Shown: positions 20,352-49,516 of the stretch, in pieces
Layout of the letters: the number at the start of each line of letters is the position of its first letter
How positions within the stretch are numbered: position 1 is the first letter of the stretch
NCBI GenBank assembly: GCA_045401155.1
Contig: CP174360.1
Span: 310,769 to 374,768, forward strand
Direction: 5' to 3'
DNA length: 64,000 nt
Source of the DNA: Candidatus Minusculum obligatum
Lineage (GTDB): Bacteria > Patescibacteriota > Minisyncoccia > Phycocordibacterales > Phycocordibacteraceae
Translations under genes and position numbers: made by a program
Notes under the pieces: model-generated
What the model was told of the DNA's origin: nothing
Databases searched by the model: none
Seen by the model: only the letters and a program-made list of their open reading frames with translations

Positions 20352-21041
20352 CTACATGGGCACTTCAAAGAAGAGGATTTCCACGTAGTCTTCTGGCATT
20401 ACTATAATCTCCTCGCCCAAGATTCCAAGTGCGTCTTTTCCACTAAGAGCTGTTCCATTTACACGCGCCTTTCCTTTTATTGCAAAAACATACACGCCAT
20501 GGTCAGGTTTTTCTTTTTTGTAAGAGATTTCTTTGTTTCCAGAGAAAGATGAGATAAATGCATCTTGGTGGATTTTTAGTGGGGCGCCACTTTCCATGCT
20601 TCCAATAAGTTGTGTGATGGCGTTTTCTTGCGTAGGTATCTTTTTTTGATCATATCGAGGAGCTACATTTTTTGTATTTGGCTCAATCCAAATTTGGAAG
20701 AGGGAAAGTGGTACATCCTCATCATTCATCTCTGCATGTAATACGCCTGTTCCTGCCGACATAACTTGGATTTCTCCCTTACTAATAGATATGTCTTTAT
20801 TACCCATATTGTCTGAGTGAGTAATTCTTCCACTTTTGACGATGGTGATAATTTCCATGTCTTTGTGTCCATGCATCGGAAATCCCGAATGTGGTGCAAT
20901 AAGATCATCATTTATCACACGAAGTGCTCCGAATCCCATTTTTTCAGGATTAAACCAATTTGCAAAAGAAAAACTATATCGTGTCTTAAGCCAGTCTAAG
21001 TTTGCTGCACCTCTTTCCTCTGCTTTATGTAGTATCTGCAT
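20352..21041 (-). CDS. Pirin-family cupin protein
   Basis: HSGFPMHGHKDMEIITIV and later cupin His residues. Start at MQILHK. Confidence 0.75.
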   Translation of the reverse strand: MQILHKAEERGAANLDWLKTRYSFSFANWFNPEKMGFGALRVINDDLIAPHSGFPMHGHKDMEIITIVKSGRITHSDNMGNKDISISKGEIQVMSAGTGVLHAEMNDEDVPLSLFQIWIEPNTKNVAPRYDQKKIPTQENAITQLIGSMESGAPLKIHQDAFISSFSGNKEISYKKEKPDHGVYVFAIKGKARVNGTALSGKDALGILGEEIIVMPEDYVEILFFEVPM

Positions 21042-26300: not shown

Positions 26301-26825
26301 TTAGTTGGGTAGTTTTTCAATAATCTCCGCGACCACATCATCTGATGGTTTGTTTGTGTGTATGGTGATGTTACCGTATTTCTTATACTGCTCAAAACGT
26401 TCTAAGAATTTTTTCTTTTCCCTTTTCTTGTCTAGACCATTCCATCGTTTTAATTGTCTTTCTGCAATCATTTCTACGTCTTGTTCCGGATTAGGAGAAG
26501 GAAGGAAAAGTATAGAATAACCAGTAGCTAGAATCTCTTCATTTTGCTTTATAACTTCTGGTAAATGTGTATGAACAAGAAAGCCAGATGATGTGGCGAG
26601 TACGGCTGGTTCTGAGATAGTTTCGGAAAGAAGTTTGGTAAGTTCTGAATTTTTCTCACAGTACTTATCGTATCCTTTGGTATCTATATAAGTTCCTATG
26701 TTTTCAATTTGAGTACAAAATTCTGAATCTACATCTATAAACGTGTATCCAAGTTTTTGTGCAAGTAGATTCCCGATTGTTGTCTTACCAACGCTGGCTG
26801 GTCCGATAAGAAGAATTAGTTTCAT
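26301..26825 (-). CDS. Shikimate-kinase-like P-loop NTP kinase, paralog 1 (cassette gene)
   Basis: MKLILLIGPASVGKTTIGNLLAQKLGYTFIDVDSEF. About 40% identical to 27801..28313. Start at MKLILL (26825) preferred over ORF-track 26885, which would read through the terminator hairpin. Confidence 0.65.
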   Translation of the reverse strand: MKLILLIGPASVGKTTIGNLLAQKLGYTFIDVDSEFCTQIENIGTYIDTKGYDKYCEKNSELTKLLSETISEPAVLATSSGFLVHTHLPEVIKQNEEILATGYSILFLPSPNPEQDVEMIAERQLKRWNGLDKKREKKKFLERFEQYKKYGNITIHTNKPSDDVVAEIIEKLPN

Positions 26826-26902
26826 TTTCTCTAGGATACCAAGGTTCGGAAATCCTCTACAGGGTATTAAAAAATAGCCCGTCAAATAAGGCTATTTTTG
26901 CT

Positions 26903-27162
26903 GGCTCCGTATATATGATGAAATCCGAATGTATTTCAGACGGAGTCTGAAATGAACGGCGAGAGCGCGTGGTACCTCGCACGTAAACCTCCGCAAGGTG
27001 ATTTCCTACTAGCTCCCGCACCCGCACGCCTCGCTGTACTCGCCGTGCACAAATAGAATCCTTCTTTGCACTTTTATCCTTTCCCGCGCCCCCATTTTTT
27101 GGGAAATAGGGAAAAGAAGTTTCTATTTGCCTTCTGCTTCGCGCAGAAGGGGTGCTTGTGCC
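26903..27162 (+). repeat. Core GGCTCCG + Y repeat, copy A (internally diverged)
   Basis: Shares 5' (TATATATGATGAAATCCGAATGTATTTCAGACGGAGTCTGAAATGAACGG) and 3' (TTTCCCGCGCCCCCATTTTTTGGGAAA...CCTTCTGC..GCAGAAGG) segments with copies at 28360, 30015 and 41075(rc). Confidence 0.85.
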
Positions 27163-27217
27163 TCGTATATAAAAGTGTTGCCCCACCTGGGAGGGTGGGG
27201 CAAGACGCTTCTCGTTA

Positions 27218-27427
27218 TCACGCACTTTCAGTCTCCCGAACGTGTTCGTTCATGGGACAGTTCTCCCGATGAACCAAGTTGTTGTTTCGGTTCAGCGGGG
27301 GAACGTCGTGCGGATAGCCAAGATGTGTGGGTCCTGTGTCGATGCCGGTAGCGCTGCAGCACAAGCAGCGGTAGCTTGACGGCTCATCGACGATTGCAGA
27401 CCGTACAGGGACAGGGACGGTTTTCAT
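27218..27427 (-). CDS. Hypothetical 69-aa protein, GC-rich island 3, gene B
   Basis: RBS GGAGAG, then spacing, then ATG. GC-rich. Followed by hairpin ttgccccacc-tggga-ggtggggcaa at 27178-27203. Confidence 0.45.
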   Translation of the reverse strand: MKTVPVPVRSAIVDEPSSYRCLCCSATGIDTGPTHLGYPHDVPPLNRNNNLVHRENCPMNEHVRETESA

Positions 27428-27448
27428 ATTTTCTCTCCGATCCAGAGG

Positions 27449-27745
27449 TTATCGCTTGTCAGTTCTGATGCCGTGGCTTGCTCGACAGGTGAGAAAGCAT
27501 AGGTTTCGAACTGCATCTTCCGGTAGTCTGCTCCAGCCCGTGAAGACGATATCTTCTTCGTGAGCCTGAAACATTGCGAGAAATCCCTCGCCATCATCAC
27601 CGCGCCGTCTCCGCGCACGGTGTTTCCTGACGATAATTTCTCCGTATCTTCCATTGACCATCTTTCGAAGCCAACGTTGTCTGCGCCTATGGCTTTGGGG
27701 TTTCATCCCTGCGCCATGAGCGAGAGCAAGGAATACATCCGGCAT
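27449..27745 (-). CDS. Hypothetical basic 98-aa protein, GC-rich island 3, gene A
   Basis: Strong RBS GGAGGG 5 nt before ATG. Arg-rich segment HRRRQRWLRK...RKHRARRRRG. About 55% GC. Confidence 0.5.
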   Translation of the reverse strand: MPDVFLALAHGAGMKPQSHRRRQRWLRKMVNGRYGEIIVRKHRARRRRGDDGEGFLAMFQAHEEDIVFTGWSRLPEDAVRNLCFLTCRASHGIRTDKR

Positions 27746-27800: not shown

Positions 27801-28313
27801 TCATGTCAATTTTTGGATGATTTCTTCAACTATGGTTTCTTTGTCTTTGCTTGGGTCAATTTGTATGTCTCCGTACTGTTTATATTTTGCATGTCTATCT
27901 AGAAACTTTTGTTTTTCTTTCTCAAAATCCAGATTCCACCGTTTTATCTGTCGAGCTGCTATTTGATCTGCAAATGATTCAGGAGGGAGTAGGAGTATAG
28001 ATACTCCATATTCTTTTAGAAGCTTTAAATGCTTTTGTACAAGATGTGGCGACTTCTCGTGTACAAGAAAACCTGAAGGAGTTGCAAAGATTATGTCTTT
28101 TGGATTTTCCTTTGTAAGTTTGAGAGCAAGTTCGGAGTTTGCTTCACAATAACTCTCATAACCATATTCTTTTAAATATTCTGATATTGGAGCAATTTGT
28201 GTACAGAATTCTTCGTCTATATCAATAAAGTTCTTATCAAGTCTCTTTGCGAGGCTGGTTCCAGCTGTTGTTTTTCCAACACTTGCAGGTCCGATCAGGA
28301 AGAGATTGTTCAT
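27801..28313 (-). CDS. Shikimate-kinase-like P-loop NTP kinase, paralog 2 (cassette gene)
   Basis: MNNLFLIGPASVGKTTAGTSLAKRLDKNFIDIDEEF. Same architecture as paralog 1. Confidence 0.65.
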   Translation of the reverse strand: MNNLFLIGPASVGKTTAGTSLAKRLDKNFIDIDEEFCTQIAPISEYLKEYGYESYCEANSELALKLTKENPKDIIFATPSGFLVHEKSPHLVQKHLKLLKEYGVSILLLPPESFADQIAARQIKRWNLDFEKEKQKFLDRHAKYKQYGDIQIDPSKDKETIVEEIIQKLT

Positions 28314-28359
28314 TAAAAAAAGTATAGCAAAACCTCCCAAAAGGAGGCCTGTACTGCCT

Positions 28360-28616
28360 GGCTCCGTATATATGATGAAATCCGAATGTATTTCAGACGG
28401 AGTCTGAAATGAACGGCGAGAGCCGGTGGTACATCAGACATACACCTCCGCGAGGTGATCTCCACATACTTTCCGCACCGCACGACTCGCTCCGCTCGCC
28501 GTGCACAAATAGAATCCTTCTTTGCACTTTTATCCTTTCCCGCGCCCCCATTTTTTGGGAAATAAGGAGAAAGAAGTCTCTATTTGCCTTCTGCTCCACA
28601 GAAGGGGTGCTTGTGC
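28360..28616 (+). repeat. Core GGCTCCG + Y repeat, copy B
   Basis: Nearly identical to copy C. 35-bp palindrome at 28382-28416. Confidence 0.85.
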
Positions 28617-29910: not shown

Positions 29911-30270
29911 GGACAAACGAGTGTCCTTTTTCTTCAAAACCCCCTGGGAAATCCTTGCAAATTTCCCCCTTCAGAATTTGGGAAATCTCCCAAAATCTGA
30001 ACTCTGTACTATCCGGCTCCGTATATATGATGAAATCCGAATGTATTTCAGACGGAGTCTGAAATGAACGGCGAGAGCCGGTGGTACATCAGACATACAC
30101 CTCCGCGAGGTGATCTCCACATACTTTCCGCACCGCACGACTCGCTCCGCTCGCCGTGCACAAATAGAATCCTTCTTTGCACTTTTATCCTTTCCCGCGC
30201 CCCCATTTTTTGGGAAACAAGGAGAAAGAAGTTTCTATTTGCCTTCTGCTTCGCAGAAGGGTGCTTGTAC
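29911..30270 (+). repeat. Intact X-core-Y unit, copy C (direct orientation)
   Basis: X has three hairpins (ggaca..tgtcc; gggaaat..atttccc; attttgg..ccaaaat). Core GGCTCCG is at 30015-30021. Y follows, with its palindrome at 30037-30071. Confidence 0.85.
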
Positions 30271-30814: not shown

Positions 30815-31489
30815 TTAGATTTCTTTTATAAGTTTTTCAATAATATCTTCTTCTGGGTATCCTTCTACAAAACTAAAGCCTGTTCCAATTTCCCACAGAA
30901 ATGATGACAGCATTCTATTGTCACGTGCTGTTACTTCCATATTCTCAATAGAATAGATCATTCGCGAAAGACCAGAATATACATTATAAAGTCTTTCATC
31001 TTTTACTTCTAAAGTGTTAAATACAACGCTCATAAAATCCCTAAATACCAGAAGCTCAATAAGAATTTGTCTTACAAAAACTTCACCATCATCAGCTTCC
31101 ATTTTGTTTCTGACACGATCCCAGCGTGTTTCGCCAGTATTCAATTCTTCCTTAAAGAATCTACGAAAATTATCTCGCTTGGATGTTTCTTCAATCCTTT
31201 CTGCATTTATCAGTTCTTCTTGTGTTCCTAATAAGATGCGAGTTAAATCCTCCCTAAATTTCCCGTAGTGTTTTTTGAGATTTTTTCGAAGTGTTTGGCG
31301 GTGTCTTCTTTCCGGTTCTTTTCCAAGTTGATAAAAGGTGATGGCAATTAGAATGGAAACAATCAACTGTAATATCAAATCGGAATAGTTTATAAATAAA
31401 TAGGGCAGATCTTTAAAAAATATAAGCACGAGAGCGAGAAATAAAACATGTGCTGCGTACAAAAGGTTATTATCTTTTACAAGATTCAT
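30815..31489 (-). CDS. Membrane protein, partner of the wHTH protein
   Basis: Two TM helices and a cytoplasmic domain. 1-nt intergenic gap to the downstream gene. Confidence 0.5.
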   Translation of the reverse strand: MNLVKDNNLLYAAHVLFLALVLIFFKDLPYLFINYSDLILQLIVSILIAITFYQLGKEPERRHRQTLRKNLKKHYGKFREDLTRILLGTQEELINAERIEETSKRDNFRRFFKEELNTGETRWDRVRNKMEADDGEVFVRQILIELLVFRDFMSVVFNTLEVKDERLYNVYSGLSRMIYSIENMEVTARDNRMLSSFLWEIGTGFSFVEGYPEEDIIEKLIKEI

Positions 31490-41074: not shown

Positions 41075-41392
41075 GCACAAATAGAAGTCCGTCATTTGCC
41101 CTTTCCCAAAAAATGGGGGCGCGGGAAAGGATAAAAGTGCAAAGAAGGATTCTATTTGTGCACGGCGAGCGGAGCGAGTCGTGCGGTGCGGAAAGTATGT
41201 GGAGATCACCTCGCGGAGGTGTATGTCTGATGTACCACCGGCTCTCGCCGTTCATTTCAGACTCCGTCTGAAATACATTCGGATTTCATCATATATACGG
41301 AGCCGGATAGTACAGAGTTCAGATTTTGGGAGATTTCCAAAATTCTGAAGGGGGAAATTCGCAAGGATTTCCCAGGGGGTTTTGAAGGAAGC
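41075..41392 (-). repeat. Y-core-X unit, copy D (inverted relative to copy C)
   Basis: Reverse complement matches Y over about 205 bp (palindrome at 41248-41282), core at 41298-41304, and X over about 90 bp. Confidence 0.85.
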
Positions 41393-41410: not shown

Positions 41411-42904
41411 ATGAGATTCTTTTTATACATACGCAAATCAACCGATGAGGATGATAGGCAGATATTGTCGCTTGAAGCGCAAGAATTTGAATTGAAGCAG
41501 TTGGCTTCGCAAGAGCAAATAGAGATAGTAGAGGTGTTTCGAGAGTCACAGACTGCAAAAGAACCAGGGCGGAAAGTTTTTAATGAAATGCTCTTGCGAA
41601 TAGAGAATGGGGAAGTTGATGGAATTCTATCGTGGCATCCGGATAGATTGGCACGCAATAGTGTAGATGGCGGACGTATTATTTATTTAGTGGATGCGGG
41701 GAAGATACAATTCCTCAAATTCCCAACATTCTGGTTTGAGCCAACGCCTCAAGGCAAATTCATGCTGAACATTGCTTTTGGTCAGTCGAAATATTTTGTT
41801 GATAATCTTTCAGAGAATACTCGTCGTGGACTTCGTCAAAAATTGCGCCGTGGCGAATGGCCGGGACCAGCACCCATTGGCTATCTAAACGATAAGTTAG
41901 GTCACACTATTGTGCTGGATCCCGAGCGTGCGCCACTTCTGCAGAAGTTGTTTGAGAAATATGCAGAGGGGAATTATTCTCTGAAAGATTTACAAAATAT
42001 TGCAAAGTCTATTGGCTTGTTTAGTAGGGGAGGAAAGGTGTTATCTGTTTCGCTTATTCAAAACATCCTCTCCAATCCTTTTTATTATGGAGTTATGAGA
42101 TATGGAGGAGAATTGTATGAAGCAAAACACGAGCCTTTGATTTCTAAGAAACTGTTTGATTCCATTCAGAAGATAATGGCTAGCAAGTCGAGACCTCGCA
42201 AACATGGAGAGGTAGAGTATCCACTGCGTGGATTATTTGAGTGTGGCGAGTGCTCGTGCGCCATTACTTCTGAAATGCAAAAAGGACATCATTATTATCG
42301 CTGCACGAAAAAGCGTGGCGCTTGCTCGCAAAAATATCTTCGAGAAGAGCTTTTGGTTGAGCAGGTTGATGATGTCCTTTCAAACGTTTCTATACCTGAT
42401 TCGTGGGCAGAGGAGATGCTCGTGAGATTGGATGAGGAGAAGGAGTCTGAGGAGAGAGAAACTTCTCTGTATGCTCAAAAATTAAGAGACGATATTGCAT
42501 CTTTTGATCTCAAGCTTGATGCACTTCTAGATACTTATTTAGAGAAAAGTATTTCAAAAGAGGAGTATCAGAGCAAAAAGCAAAAACTGTTAGATCAAAA
42601 GATAGATTTGCAGGAGAAATTAGACTCAATTTCGCATACAGGAAGTTTCTGGCTCGAACCGATGCGAAACTTAATTTTAGATAGTAAACAAGCCAAATAT
42701 ATTGCTTCACAAAAATCTCTCTTCGAGAAGAGAGATTTTTGCAAAAAGGTTGGCTCGAACCTTGTTTTAGTGGACAAACGAGTGTCCTTTTTCTTCAAAA
42801 CCCCCTGGGAAATCCTTGCGAATTTCCCCCTTCAGAATTTTGGAAATCTCCCAAAATCTGAACTCTGTACTATCCGGCTCCGCGGACAGGATTCGAACCT
42901 GTGA
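41411..42904 (+). CDS. Large serine recombinase (resolvase-domain integrase)
   Basis: N-terminal YIRKSTDEDDRQILSLEAQ with catalytic Ser. Recombinase domain, zinc ribbon CGECSCA...YYRC, coiled coil. ORF runs through repeat X and stops inside the tRNA 3' end. Confidence 0.85.
   Translation: MRFFLYIRKSTDEDDRQILSLEAQEFELKQLASQEQIEIVEVFRESQTAKEPGRKVFNEMLLRIENGEVDGILSWHPDRLARNSVDGGRIIYLVDAGKIQFLKFPTFWFEPTPQGKFMLNIAFGQSKYFVDNLSENTRRGLRQKLRRGEWPGPAPIGYLNDKLGHTIVLDPERAPLLQKLFEKYAEGNYSLKDLQNIAKSIGLFSRGGKVLSVSLIQNILSNPFYYGVMRYGGELYEAKHEPLISKKLFDSIQKIMASKSRPRKHGEVEYPLRGLFECGECSCAITSEMQKGHHYYRCTKKRGACSQKYLREELLVEQVDDVLSNVSIPDSWAEEMLVRLDEEKESEERETSLYAQKLRDDIASFDLKLDALLDTYLEKSISKEEYQSKKQKLLDQKIDLQEKLDSISHTGSFWLEPMRNLILDSKQAKYIASQKSLFEKRDFCKKVGSNLVLVDKRVSFFFKTPWEILANFPLQNFGNLPKSELCTIRLRGQDSNL
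42772..42890 (+). repeat. X repeat + core GGCTCCG, copy R, abutting the tRNA 3' end
   Basis: Identical to X in copy C. Inverted relative to X in copy D, so the recombinase gene is bracketed by roughly 100-bp inverted repeats. Confidence 0.85.
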
Positions 42905-43495
42905 CCTGCCGGTTACGCTTGATCCCACTATTTCTAGGGGTGCGGACTATATCATCACCCATCTTGCGATTAGGGTGGAAGGCGCTTCCCAAAGCTTTCG
43001 CTCCAGTACTCCCGTAAGGGATAGTCTCTGAACCTTCCTCGTGAGAGGCTTGGCTGCTGATTACCTGCAACATTACTTGCTAAGGCTTCCAGCAATTCAC
43101 CTTCTTTTCAACCTAAGTTTCCTTAGGAGGCTGCGTGGTGCCTGCGTGCAGTTCTGCGTGGCAATTTGCGCAAACAAGAATACATTTATCAAGTTCTTTT
43201 TGGATTTTCTCCCAAGAACGAGTTAGTCCTCTTGCTGATAATCCAAAATCTTTTTGCTTTGGATCTTTGTGATGAAAGGCAAGCGCTTGCTTACATTTTT
43301 TATATCCACAAATTTTGCATTTACCACCTCCGTATTCAAGAGCTTTGTTGCGAAGTTCCTTTCGTCGCTTTGCAACTGCCTTGCGGAGATATTCTGCACG
43401 GTCAGCGTATGTTCTTTTATCTGGCATACACATATGTAGTATACCAGAGGAACATGCGTTCACAGCCGGATGCTCTACCGCTGAGCTACCGCGGA
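42886..43495 (-). tRNA. tRNA (Asn-GUU if spliced by group I rules; His-GUG if co-linear) split by a ~538-nt anticodon-loop intron
   Basis: Exon 1 (43495..43462) is TCCGCGGTAGCTCAGCGGTAGAGCATCCGGCTGT. Exon 2 (42923..42886) is TAACCGGCAGGTCACAGGTTCGAATCCTGTCCGCGGAG. Acceptor stem is 7/7, D-arm and T-arm (GGTTCGAATCC) are canonical, discriminator is G. Confidence 0.75.
43113..43433 (-). CDS. Intron-encoded HNH homing endonuclease
   Basis: CKICGYKKCKQALAFHHKDPKQKD...CANCHAELH (HNH with two zinc knuckles). Lies wholly inside the tRNA intron. ORF-track N-terminal extension to 43571 rejected. Confidence 0.75.
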   Translation of the reverse strand: MCMPDKRTYADRAEYLRKAVAKRRKELRNKALEYGGGKCKICGYKKCKQALAFHHKDPKQKDFGLSARGLTRSWEKIQKELDKCILVCANCHAELHAGTTQPPKET

Positions 43496-43594
43496 ATATA
43501 AATACGCTCATGTGAAGCGTGAAGGCATTGTACCCAAAAAGGGTCATTTTGCAATGTGATATACTCACCAAATAGTAAGTAATGAATGTAATTT

Positions 43595-44426: not shown

Positions 44427-45254
44427 AGGAAGAGTAAGTTCGCGATAGCGAACTTCTTTTTTACCCTCAGGAGTAACTTTTGTTGGAAGAAACACGCCTT
44501 TGTAGAAGGTTGCGTCATTTATTTTTATTCGTGTCCCATCTTGTGCAAAGAAGAATGTTCCAGGCCATGGGTGATATGCGCAGAATTTTAGGAAGTTCTG
44601 ATATGCGTCATTTTTAAAATCAATTTCTCCATCCCCTTTCTTTATTTTTGAAGTAAATGTTGCCTGCTCATGATCTTGTTCTTCGGGGGTGACTTCTTCT
44701 TTTACGGTTTTTTGCATTGCCTCAGCAAGTAATTCTCCTCCAAAAGCTGCAAGTACTGTGGTAAGTTCATTTTTTCGTATTGGCCAGGCAGGAAGCTCCT
44801 TGATCTTTTGAAATACAATCGGTCCGTGATCAAGCTCTTCATCCATTTGCATGATCGTTACCCCAACCTTTTTTTCATCTTCTAGAATTTGTCCTTCGAT
44901 AGGAGAGGCTCCACGGTACTTTGGAAGCATTGAAGGGTGTACATTAAGCGTTCCATATTTTGGAAGTTCGATAAGCTCTTTTTTAAGAATCTTTCCATAT
45001 GCTGCAACAACAAACATGTCGAAGTTTTTTTGTAGCTCCTCTGGAATTTCTTTAAGAGATTCTGGTTGAATATATGGGATACCTTTTTCCTCTGCGTATA
45101 CCTTTACGGCAGGAGGCGTCATCTCCATACCGCGTCCAGCTTTTTTGTCTGGTGCAGTAACAATAAGGGAGGGGGCAAGTCCTCGCTCTTCAAGCTCCTC
45201 AAGGATTCGTACGGCAAATGGAGGAGTGCCAAAGTATGCAAAATTAACGCTCAT
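44400..45254 (-). CDS. fmt: Methionyl-tRNA formyltransferase
   Basis: FGTPPFAV, NVHPSMLPKYRGASPI. Confidence 0.85.
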   Translation of the reverse strand: MSVNFAYFGTPPFAVRILEELEERGLAPSLIVTAPDKKAGRGMEMTPPAVKVYAEEKGIPYIQPESLKEIPEELQKNFDMFVVAAYGKILKKELIELPKYGTLNVHPSMLPKYRGASPIEGQILEDEKKVGVTIMQMDEELDHGPIVFQKIKELPAWPIRKNELTTVLAAFGGELLAEAMQKTVKEEVTPEEQDHEQATFTSKIKKGDGEIDFKNDAYQNFLKFCAYHPWPGTFFFAQDGTRIKINDATFYKGVFLPTKVTPEGKKEVRYRELTLPLPPEAPQE

Positions 45255-45750
45255 GTTGTTCTAGGTTTTCTGCATGATCAATAAACAAAATACCATCTAA
45301 ATGATCAATTTCATGCTGATATGCCTGCGCCAGGATTCCGCCTCCGCCACGAGTAAACCAGTTCCCATCAGCATCTTGTGCTTTTACAGTCGCGCGCTCG
45401 TATCTTTTTGTTGTCCCAAAAATCCCATCCACAGAAAGGCAGCCTTCAGGCATCTCAGTCTTCTTTCGAGATGTCTTAACAATAGTTGGATTTATAAAAA
45501 CACCAACCTCTGGCTCTGCTTCTTTTTCTTCTTGAGGAGGGAGCATTCGATCATATCGCACAATAAAAATACGATATGGAATTGCAATTTGTGGTGCAGC
45601 GAGTGCCACGCCATATTCTTTTGCATTAAGAGATGCTTCCATTTGGGCAAGCATGTCCTTTAGTTTGTCAGATCCAAAAAGGTCTGCGGGAACCTCTTTT
45701 GCAGTTTCTCGCAGCACCTCGTCTTCGCCTTCTTGTACAATCGGCTTCAT
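45244..45750 (-). CDS. def: Peptide deformylase
   Basis: EGCLSV and QHEIDHLDG motifs. def-fmt operon. Confidence 0.9.
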   Translation of the reverse strand: MKPIVQEGEDEVLRETAKEVPADLFGSDKLKDMLAQMEASLNAKEYGVALAAPQIAIPYRIFIVRYDRMLPPQEEKEAEPEVGVFINPTIVKTSRKKTEMPEGCLSVDGIFGTTKRYERATVKAQDADGNWFTRGGGGILAQAYQHEIDHLDGILFIDHAENLEQHER

Positions 45751-45762
45751 ATTTTGAGTATA

Positions 45763-46045
45763 AACAAAAAAGCCACCTATGCATAGGTGGCAAAAGGGCC
45801 AGGTGAGGTGACCAGAGAACTCGCGCTACCAAGGCGAGGGTTCAAAGGAAGCACGTGCTTCTGGCCACCTCGGGGCGCACAGGAGAAGTATATCATAGAA
45901 GAAAGGGCGGAAAACGTTGTGGAGGGCACACAGCGTTTTCCGCCCAGAGGCGAGCGCATCAGGCTCAGTCACGAAACCTTTGCGCTCGCGCGGTGCCCGT
46001 CTGCGGGGGGAGATTGCAAACGGGCGGCCTGGATCCATACTACGC
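45763..46045 (-). ncRNA. GC-rich structured RNA candidate ending in an intrinsic terminator (identity unresolved)
   Basis: About 58% GC over about 285 nt with no credible ORF. Minus strand ends with GCCACCTATGCATAGGTGGC + T6 at 45763-45791. Long internal stems such as ggcggaaaacg/cgttttccgcc. Confidence 0.45.
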
Positions 46046-46065
46046 CTTTAGGTTAGAATTGCAAT

Positions 46066-46353
46066 ATGGAGCACATTGGCGCAAATCTTCCAGAATTTAA
46101 ACAAGAAAAAACACGTAAGACAGAGCGGGGAGAGCTTATGGTGTATTTTTGTGCGAAATTAAATGCTTCAAGAGAAAAAGATGGATTAAAACCTCTTTCT
46201 ATGGGGCGTATGGGTATGCTTTTGCAGGGTATCCCTACGAAAGACCTCTATTATTTAAAAAGTATTTGTGAACAAGCAAAACACTTTTCTAAAAAGTTTT
46301 GGTGGGAAATTAATCCAAAAAATCACGACGGGAAGCAATTTGGACAGAAGTAA
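46066..46353 (+). CDS. Hypothetical protein
   Basis: 95-aa basic protein upstream of murA. Confidence 0.4.
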   Translation: MEHIGANLPEFKQEKTRKTERGELMVYFCAKLNASREKDGLKPLSMGRMGMLLQGIPTKDLYYLKSICEQAKHFSKKFWWEINPKNHDGKQFGQK

Positions 46354-48738: not shown

Positions 48739-49434
48739 TTACCAGGTGCGGCTCACGCTCGCTCCGTAGGTCACGTGATGTGCTTCCGGTCCGGAGGGAT
48801 TGAATCCACCGACAGAAAGCGTGAGTGACCAGTTCTCGAAAGACCGTGTCGTCGAAGCTTCCCATCGTGGAGACGTGTAGTCCGAATCGGTACTGTGCGT
48901 GACGCCCAGAAGCATATTGGTGCTCCAGCTCTCACTGACCGTATGATTCCAGCTCGCGGCGGTGCGCCACAAGTTGGTTTCAATCAGGCCGGTGAGTTGA
49001 TCAGCGCCGAGCATCAGGTTGATGCTGTTGTTGGCGTCGATCTCGATCGTGTCACTCACCGTGGCGCGGAATCGGATGATGTCCGTGCCGGTAAAGTCGA
49101 GGTCGCCGACATTGGGAGTCGGAATATCGAACAACGAGATCGAGGCACTGCAGGAAAGGTTCCCGCACGCGCCTGCCCAGCCGACAGTGTAGTCAACCTC
49201 ACGGCCCTGGACATTTCCATCGAGCGCTTCAGAGCGCCAGTAGTCAAGGAAGAATCCATTCCCGTAGGAGGTAGTGATGCCGCCTTGAAGAACGGGTTCG
49301 TCGTATTGGGTGAAGCCGAACTCCGAGAAGGAGTAATCCGACTTCACACCGACGTAGATCGTGAGTTCTTGAGCGCTCGCTGTCGAGCCAAGAAGCGCAA
49401 CAGCAGCAAGCATGGTAAGGATCGTTTTCATCAC
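48739..49434 (-). CDS. Proteobacterial-type outer-membrane beta-barrel protein (TIGR02001/MipA-like) in GC-rich island 4
   Basis: Signal peptide. LTIYVGVKSDYSFSEF...GFFLDYWRSE. Alternating amphipathic strands, C-terminal W. About 58% GC. Confidence 0.6.
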   Translation of the reverse strand: MMKTILTMLAAVALLGSTASAQELTIYVGVKSDYSFSEFGFTQYDEPVLQGGITTSYGNGFFLDYWRSEALDGNVQGREVDYTVGWAGACGNLSCSASISLFDIPTPNVGDLDFTGTDIIRFRATVSDTIEIDANNSINLMLGADQLTGLIETNLWRTAASWNHTVSESWSTNMLLGVTHSTDSDYTSPRWEASTTRSFENWSLTLSVGGFNPSGPEAHHVTYGASVSRTW

Positions 49435-49516
49435 ATCCCCCTTTCTATATGGTCTGATGAATTGTTAATATTATAACATAAAATACATAAAAATCAATAT
49501 ATAGTAGAATGGTCAT

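Follow-up and report, generated by a model that had tools for sequence, protein, structure and literature searches.

Directly upstream of def, within the 64-kb stretch of DNA analysed here (the window), lies a GC-rich segment at 45763-46045, and the question it raises is whether it encodes a structured RNA and, if so, whether that RNA is a gene in its own right, a leader of def, or a divergent form of a housekeeping RNA. The segment is bounded by def on the minus strand and by orf95, an open reading frame (ORF) of 95 amino acids on the plus strand with murA and then mreB downstream of it. GC content is 0.57-0.64 across 45800-46049, compared to about 0.42 for the whole window. The minimum free energy (MFE) of the minus strand is -133.2 kcal/mol, against -93.2 +/- 5.1 kcal/mol for dinucleotide shuffles (z = -7.8), and that of the plus strand is -135.2 kcal/mol (z = -6.4 against dinucleotide shuffles). 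The MFE and centroid folds both contain four adjacent long hairpins followed by a terminator. The initial annotation had described a GC-rich structured segment with long complementary stems, and this description is confirmed by the composition, by folds that lie far beyond the shuffles on both strands, and by the terminator. It had also reported no credible ORF. ORFs of 89, 81, 70 and 60 amino acids are present across the segment, but a tblastx comparison with 46 homologous intergenic regions gave chance matches alone; none of these ORFs is conserved, and those of 70-89 amino acids should be treated as spurious in annotation. We consider the segment most likely to be a stand-alone small RNA (sRNA) gene on the minus strand with C-rich-loop hairpins, probably encoding an accessory trans-acting regulator of an undescribed family. 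We have considerable confidence that the segment is a structured RNA gene of its own and neither a leader of def nor a housekeeping RNA, and a structured minus-strand RNA ending in an intrinsic terminator fits the option of an independent RNA gene that had been raised from the sequence. The features of the locus, read from the sequence and the folds, are as follows.

46066-46353, plus strand: orf95, ORF of 95 amino acids bounding the segment, with murA and then mreB after it
46059-46064, minus strand: predicted -35 box TTGCAA (sequence reading), abutting the start codon of the divergent orf95
46037-46042, minus strand: predicted -10 box TAGTAT, 16 nt from the -35 box, the same arrangement being seen in cluster relatives
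45995-46025, minus strand: hairpin H1, 10-bp stem, apical loop AAUCUCCCCCC (MFE fold)
45951-45988, minus strand: hairpin H2 (CGAGCGCA...UGCGCUCG), loop without a C-run (MFE fold)
45905-45945, minus strand: hairpin H3, stem of 12 perfect and 4 further pairs, apical GUGUGCCCUCCACAAC containing CCUCC (MFE fold)
45872-45904, minus strand: mostly unpaired linker, its 5' end A+U-rich (UUUCUUCUAUGAUAUACUUCUCCUGUGCGCCCC)
45805-45871, minus strand: hairpin H4 (5' GAGGUGGCCAGA... / ...UCUGGUCACCUC 3'), the family-conserved hairpin (10-member alignment)
45792-45804, minus strand: G-poor single-stranded linker ACCUGGCCCUUUU preceding the terminator, which together with the end of H4 reads UCACCUCACCU
45766-45791, minus strand: intrinsic terminator, 8-bp stem (5 G-C pairs), 4-nt loop, U6
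45750-45765, minus strand: def promoter, TG at 45766-45765, -10 box TATACT at 45762-45757, 6 nt to the ATG at 45750
45244-45750, minus strand: def (Pfam Pep_deformylase, E = 1.6e-41), bounding the segment

The predicted RNA is approximately 265 nt in length and runs roughly from 46030 to 45766 on the minus strand, with a predicted transcription start at about 46030 +/- 2. Its putative promoter matches the consensus at 8 of 12 positions, which is under the threshold of the promoter-scanning tool, and it was not reported by that scan. The terminator is formed by the stem GCCACCTATGCATAGGTGGC at 45791-45772 and T6 at 45771-45766 on the minus strand. An intrinsic terminator ahead of def had been noted earlier and is borne out, although the distance of 12 nt then given has to be corrected, the ATG (45750) lying 15 nt past T6 and 21 nt past the stem. 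Hairpins H1 to H3 are near-perfect palindromes, and the loops of the element in the window are AAUCUCCCCCC, CGUGACU and UGCCCUC. Neither blastn of the element against the loci of relatives nor an all-against-all blastn gave alignable homologues of H1-H3, and their structure is therefore a thermodynamic prediction. A first hairpin with a C-rich loop is also found at the H1 position in relatives, as are tails of the form CACC(N)CC, similar to the linker of the window, in relatives of the same cluster; no homologue of H2 was found among the relatives.

For H4, covariation was analyzed over 14 lower-stem pairs in an alignment (A2) of 10 members. Of the alignment cells, 84.6% are paired, compared to 33-49% when the partner strand is slid by 1-3 columns. 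Both sides have changed in 8 of the 14 pairs, and the covariation score was reached by none of 500 shuffles. Ten cells are G-U or U-G pairs, which are valid on the minus strand alone and become A-C mismatches on the plus strand. Double changes were also observed in a second cluster, at 10 of 35 pairs. A covariance model of this 3' module (R1) gave one match in the window, at H4, and beyond its seed it recovered L105, L009 (E = 2e-5), the first of two units at L108 (E = 1e-3), and a remnant at L101, the L-numbers here and below designating related loci.

Several asymmetries distinguish the two strands. A T-run follows the hairpin on the minus strand alone, and in 31 of 46 elements the fold of the def strand is the more stable one. 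For 52 elements the summed MFE was -5572 kcal/mol, against -4194 +/- 43 kcal/mol for dinucleotide shuffles. CCCC occurred 71 times in the predicted hairpin loops of these 52 elements, against 13 +/- 4.8 in the shuffles, an excess that is due in part to the scarcity of G. On the RNA strand, CCCCC was counted 55 times and GGGGG twice, with similar disparities for CCTCC and GGAGG (40 against 9) and for CCCTC and GAGGG (41 against 11). Typical loops of the family are AAUCUCCCCCC (H1 of the window), AACCCCUCC, ACUUCCCCCC, UUCCCCCCUU and UGUUCCCUCCUCCCCUU. We also defined a strict C-loop hairpin as a contiguous stem of 7 or more bp with a loop of no more than 16 nt holding a run of four or more C residues. 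Only two such hairpins were found on both strands of the 64-kb window, one of them being H1, and across 84 loci their density in the 460 nt preceding def was 12 times that of the remaining sequence.

To relate the element to other genomes, we gathered loci in three ways: species-representative genomes searched with the def protein gave 16 Patescibacteria/Paceibacteria-type MAG loci, an alignment of orf95 retrieved 80 of 481 matching metagenome loci, and look-ups of close def homologues added ten more. An exact look-up of the def protein of the window in an index of assemblies gave no record. Within these related loci orf95 and def are neighbours almost everywhere, in either divergent or tandem orientation. 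The gap between them is bimodal, measuring 0-85 nt or about 130-460 nt, and the long gaps hold GC-rich, hairpin-rich sequence. In approximately 110 related Patescibacteria loci a recurring unit stands directly upstream of def; it consists of a promoter of the sigma-70 type, GC-rich hairpins that vary in number, and a terminator, the last of these being detected in the same position in 44 of 52 elements. Predicted RNA lengths range from approximately 100 to approximately 400 nt. At L011-L013 the upstream gene is a different one and the element is still found directly upstream of def. Sequence is alignable within small clusters only, as determined by all-against-all blastn, and blastn of the window element against the loci of relatives revealed similarity in the flanks only. 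The cluster of the window comprises L001, L002, L021, L024, L025, L102-L106, L108 and L110, which have in common the promoter, the hairpin before the terminator (H4), and the terminator. Promoters in this cluster have the form TTGCAA/TTGCAT/TTGCTT, a spacing of 16 or 17 nt, and TAnnAT (e.g. TACTAT/TATAGT); distant members have TTGACA-17-TAnnAT, with 34 of 52 passing a strict regular expression and others recognised by eye. A motif absent from the element of the window, (A/G)GGUAUAA(A/U), recurs in elements of distant clusters (L007, L008, L010, L014, L030, L067, L077, L083, L093 and L094), often within a hairpin loop and with ACCCC after it.

The variable part of the element changes rapidly. 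L102, the def of which is 83% identical, has quite different hairpins and two terminated units, and two terminated units are likewise found at L025. At L108 two complete units of promoter, hairpins and terminator stand in tandem, the promoter block being duplicated as well. The duplicated sRNA units of L108 (255-713) have since diverged in their hairpins, and duplications are seen also in L025 and in L102 (1132-1500). L101, the def of which is 98% identical, is without approximately 185 nt of the GC-rich hairpins; still present at this locus are the flanks, the H4 3' strand (TTGGTCACCTCACCTG), an identical terminator and the def promoter, and the sRNA -10 box is degraded to CATCAT. The element is thus dispensable, being mostly missing in a strain with so similar a def, and it is fast-evolving but does not resemble a mobile element. 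A mobile element of the MITE or REP-like type was considered and rejected: a repeat finder gave no extra copies in the 64-kb window, the covariance model of the 3' module found a single copy there, no direct repeats were found at the boundaries of the indel relative to L101, and phage and plasmid collections held no match to the element. These data suggest a lineage-specific, modular family in Patescibacteria (class Paceibacteria-like) in which the turnover of hairpins and of whole units, by gain, duplication and loss, is probably fast. What most likely persists is the location ahead of def, together with one hairpin and the C-richness of the loops. If the family is real, it would show the speed at which an RNA gene can change at one fixed locus through the addition, duplication and loss of hairpins.

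The proximity of the terminator to def had led to the proposal that the segment might act as a leader or attenuator of def-fmt. The arrangement of the def promoter argues against this. Whether or not they carry the element, nearly all loci have a TATAGT/TATACT box ahead of the def ATG, usually preceded by TGn; the distance from the -10 box to the ATG is 6-8 nt in most loci and up to 17 nt in a few. The exact sequence TGnTATACT is present at def in L001 and L002, and in the window one extra T lies between TG and the -10 box. This layout is, judged by its sequence, the signature of a leaderless or very-short-leader mRNA transcribed from an extended -10 promoter. Similar layouts occur across the window: of its 63 ORFs, 26 are preceded by a TAnnnT box at 5-9 nt from the ATG and 10 have a motif like that of Shine-Dalgarno (SD) sites, so that the genome looks largely leaderless. 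At several unrelated genes of the window (e.g. upstream of 20352-21041, 27801-28313 and 30815-31489) a terminator hairpin and T-run are fused to the TGnTATACT box of the next gene, with 6-8 nt and then the ATG. The tight spacing between terminator and def is consequently that of a normal gene boundary, and for annotation the terminator adjoining def is an ordinary gene end, not an attenuator. Because the ATG of def is preceded at 6 nt by a separate -10 box, also in relatives that are without the element, the element is not a leader of def.

Comparison with known RNA families was performed with Rfam 15, both at the gathering score and at E <= 10 over 45600-46200. There was no match in this interval at the gathering score, and at E <= 10 only chance microRNA- and snoRNA-like matches on palindromes, the palindrome of H3 being one such microRNA-like match. 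At the element position of 20 member loci Rfam likewise found nothing, the only matches in these loci being tRNAs and group I introns elsewhere. ARAGORN detected neither a tRNA nor a tmRNA. The initial annotation had pointed to RNase P, SRP, 6S and tmRNA as families to compare; none matched the segment, which is therefore not one of these RNAs. The weak resemblance to RNase P CR-IV that had been seen is on the plus strand, with RF00010 and RF00011 giving no match at the gathering score in the window or at E <= 10 in 45600-46200, and the conserved core of RNase P RNA (P4 pseudoknot, CR-I to CR-V) is not recognised by the Rfam covariance models. The SRP-like string GGUUCAAAGGAAGCA also proved to be on the plus strand and not the RNA strand, and neither SRP model (RF00169, RF01854), with the domain IV/helix 8 and GNRA-type tetraloop that characterise this RNA, matched. 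For 6S RNA (RF00013) there is no Rfam match, the fold has four adjacent hairpins in place of a single rod with a central bubble, and approximately 185 nt are missing in the strain with a 98% identical def. A tmRNA (RF00023), with its tRNA-like domain and tag frame, was found by neither ARAGORN nor Rfam. Riboswitches and T-boxes were rejected because Rfam gave no match in the segment or in the 20 member loci.

Three accounts of what the segment is can be weighed against an independent sRNA gene. According to the first of these, transcription from the upstream promoter would under some condition read through the terminator and drive def, making the segment a cis-acting leader or attenuator of def-fmt. 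The element is indeed directly upstream of def and on the same strand in every member, and initiation on a read-through transcript could be aided by the sequence rich in A and U that separates the terminator from the ATG. Within the window, moreover, an antiterminator could form between AGGUGGC, the 5' strand of H4, and GCCACCU, the 5' arm of the terminator. We dropped this antiterminator idea because the pairing exists in the sequence of the window alone, being absent from L001, L002 and L021. The -10 box that def retains at 6-8 nt from its ATG whether or not the element is present, the identical fusions of terminator and promoter at unrelated genes, the loss of the element from many relatives and most of it from a near-identical strain, and the lack of a riboswitch or T-box match in the segment and 20 member loci all weigh against read-through control, which we regard as quite improbable. 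A housekeeping RNA (RNase P, SRP, 6S or tmRNA) so divergent that the Rfam models miss it is more improbable still: although in size and in GC contrast the segment is like the stable RNAs of AT-rich genomes, and none of these four RNAs was found elsewhere within the 64-kb window, there is nothing at E <= 10 or in the 20 member loci, ARAGORN reports no tmRNA, and several adjacent hairpins do not make a 6S-type rod. Nor would one expect a housekeeping RNA to vary about fourfold in length, to be duplicated as a unit in some genomes and absent from many, or to be some 185 nt shorter in a strain with a 98% identical def. An RNA of the plus strand, acting as a 5' UTR or regulator of orf95-murA-mreB, is equally remote. 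The plus strand does fold about as well (-135 kcal/mol, z = -6.4), but the -10 box of orf95 (TAGAAT, 46054-46059) lies 6 nt before its ATG, the G-U cells of H4 become A-C mismatches when read on this strand, and the T-run is exclusive to the minus strand. In many relatives, furthermore, orf95 is upstream on the same strand as def, and the element is for this reason downstream of orf95 there.

Two further accounts, and a more speculative one, concern function. The repeated C-rich loops could serve as a sponge or scaffold that titrates an RNA-binding protein instead of pairing with mRNA. The element shows features typical of sponge RNAs, namely a hairpin number that varies, units duplicated in tandem, rapid sequence turnover and loops of conserved composition, and targets of the SD type are scarce; we nevertheless found no candidate C-binding protein, and the neighbouring orf95 is without a recognisable RNA-binding fold and equally present in loci that are without the element. 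Titration of a protein seems unlikely, though not negligible. Neutral or selfish accretion of GC-rich palindromes, e.g. by template switching or small insertions and with no RNA function, would account for the approximately 185 nt absent in a near-identical strain, for the near-perfect palindromes H1-H3 that have no homologues, and for element lengths from approximately 100 to approximately 400 nt. It does not account for a promoter and terminator conserved around the variable part, for the compensatory changes and strand-specific G-U pairs of H4, or for the strong and strand-specific asymmetry of C- and G-runs, and the element is present in one copy in the window and has no match in phage or plasmid collections. 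A neutral gap of 300 nt would also be unusual, these genomes being very compact, and we judge accretion to be distinctly unlikely. Lastly, it is conceivable, though improbable, that the RNAs are decoys of the 16S rRNA 3' tail in a lineage largely past Shine-Dalgarno initiation. Such an RNA would soak up the few SD-led mRNAs, or factors acting on the 16S 3' end, and would in this way tune how much translation is leaderless and how much is SD-led, while hairpins would come and go over the time in which strains diverge. Read together with the tail, the H4 3' strand is CUGGUCACCUCACCU in the window (45801-45815, minus strand), UUGGUCACCUUCCCUU in L001 and GGGUCACCCUCUUA in L051, and the loops repeat CCUCC. 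In the window, L001, L051 and L063 this sequence resembles the bacterial 16S 3' end GGAUCACCUCCUUA, a resemblance that could be due to chance; the 16S end is used here as a general comparison, the 16S gene of the host being located outside the 64-kb window.

For the favoured reading, a stand-alone trans-acting sRNA, the closest parallels are bacterial sRNAs that expose C-rich loops. The 6C sRNA binds several mRNAs at G-rich sites by means of apical C-rich loops and without a chaperone (PMC6486639). It resembles the element in its stable stems and apical C-rich loops, but it is short, well conserved, and has a fixed architecture of two C-loops, whereas the element of the window is approximately 265 nt, poorly conserved and variable in its hairpins. 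The 6C model (RF01066; two hairpins with loops of at least 6 C) gave no match at E <= 10, a C6 loop being present in H1 only. Many leaderless mRNAs are also used by the Actinobacteria, the group that hosts 6C. The sRNA sX13 of Xanthomonas is Hfq-independent and has three stable stems with apical C-rich loops; repression by sX13 requires its 4C/5C loop motifs as well as G-rich motifs in the target (PMC3771888). The stable stems with C-rich apical loops recur in the window element, but sequence and locus are unrelated (sX13 adjoins polA), and the G-rich motifs at ribosome-binding sites that sX13 targets are rare in this genome.

The cuckoo/CcsR RNAs of Alphaproteobacteria (RSs0680, SmelC397 and others) contain 2-4 modular, adjacent hairpins with CCUCCUCCC loops, and have highly variable stems with many compensatory changes in a neighbourhood that is kept and in which a small conserved protein gene adjoins (PMC4615179). 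Their covariance models perform poorly because the sequence is not conserved beyond close relatives. The family described here shares with them the modular hairpins, variable stems, C-rich loops of anti-SD type, preserved neighbourhood and small conserved protein gene. It differs in having no homology or Rfam match to them, in its phylum and in a host that is largely leaderless and SD-poor, in its neighbours (orf95/def here, a DUF1127 gene for cuckoo), and in its looser loops, which contain C4-C7 runs, CCUCC or CCCUCC in place of the fixed CCUCCUCCC, H2 having no motif at all. Membership in cuckoo/CcsR was rejected, as CCUCCUCCC is not found in every hairpin loop and the exact motif appears in a few relatives only (L104, L010). 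Sponge RNAs such as CsrB and RsmZ have many hairpins with repeated GGA loops for CsrA, a variable number of units, and their own promoter and terminator. The family is like them in its many hairpins, repeated loop motif, variable unit number, predicted promoter and own terminator, but GGA loops are opposite in composition, and the RNA strand of the present elements shows a strong depletion of GGAGG and GGGGG. With no model match, a looser loop motif and a different phylum, the element is not a member of 6C, sX13 or cuckoo; by analogy it is best filed as a new family of a known kind of sRNA, one that would work as those RNAs do.

Because its anatomy matches the design of 6C, sX13 and cuckoo, we propose that the RNA acts in trans through pairing of its loops. 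Transcription, trans action and targets are here what we infer from sequence. Transcription would begin at the sRNA's own sigma-70-type promoter, overlapping the start of the divergent orf95, and would stop at the intrinsic terminator, directly ahead of the leaderless promoter of def. H1 and H3 would present a C-run or CCUCC in their apical loops, and a G-poor, CACC-rich tail would precede the terminator. The exposed C-rich loops would then pair with G-rich stretches of other RNAs by chaperone-free G-C 'kissing' contacts, the resulting role of the RNA being that of an accessory post-transcriptional regulator. Base pairing by C-loops is offered as a tentative mechanism, drawn from the analogous sRNAs. 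The ribosome-binding site, which is the usual target of C-loop sRNAs, would be mostly absent, given that SD motifs precede so few ORFs, and runs of five G are frequent inside coding regions. Because runs of five or more G are so common there, target prediction is unspecific and no specific target can be named. Since the predicted sRNA -35 box adjoins the start codon of orf95 and shares sequence with the -10 region of that gene (46054-46059), in the divergent arrangement the two promoters may compete; such competition would not be general, since many relatives have the tandem arrangement.

A literature search found no regulatory sRNA of Patescibacteria (CPR) or Parcubacteria, and the family is a first candidate of this kind for CPR bacteria, with unusual evolutionary dynamics. 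The sub-megabase genomes of Patescibacteria leave little non-coding DNA. If the family is real, it would provide a first handle on post-transcriptional control in this group, and would be a further, independent case of a design that joins stable stems to C-rich loops, here in a genome where Shine-Dalgarno sites are few, raising the question of what C-loops target where ribosome-binding sites are not G-rich.

The neighbouring orf95 encodes a conserved orphan protein with an invariant FSKKFWWE..P motif and no Pfam family, and its gene adjoins def or murA in 481 or more metagenome stretches. Its AlphaFold model is confident (pLDDT 85) and all-helical with five helices, and a search for this fold in the PDB gave no match (best E = 4). 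A role as a partner RNA-binding protein was rejected on the basis of the lack of a PDB or Pfam match and the occurrence of orf95 in loci without the element.

Other GC-rich spots of the window, at 9.0, 13.5, 27.0-27.6 and 48.6-49.4 kb, were considered as possible sister RNAs. Those at 27.0-27.6 and 48.6-49.4 kb turned out to be protein-coding or repeat-associated DNA, not similar elements. The region at 48739-49476 (GC 0.51-0.58) has long overlapping ORFs on both strands, that on the minus strand having a weak match to Gcw_chp (E = 2e-5) and a strong SD-like site (GGGGGA) of a kind that is rare here. A family of repeats of approximately 290 nt with 97-99% identity is found at 28349-28606, 29929-30261, 41102-41390 (inverted) and 42765-42882, along with a more diverged copy (67-95%) at 26892-27149. 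These repeats flank a large serine recombinase gene (41411-42904), the GC-rich stretch at 27000-27600, and two shikimate-kinase-like paralogues (26301-26885 and 27801-28340), an arrangement that could represent an integrated element or recombination cassette. A tRNA-Asn(GUU) at 42876-43495 on the minus strand, missed by ARAGORN, has its anticodon loop split by a group I intron of approximately 550 nt, which was recognised by Rfam (RF00028, 42924-43197) and carries an HNH endonuclease ORF (43113-43571). The tRNA-Asn is intact in L001, L002, L004, L010, L011 and L026, and a syntenic group I intron is present in L007, L009 and L014.
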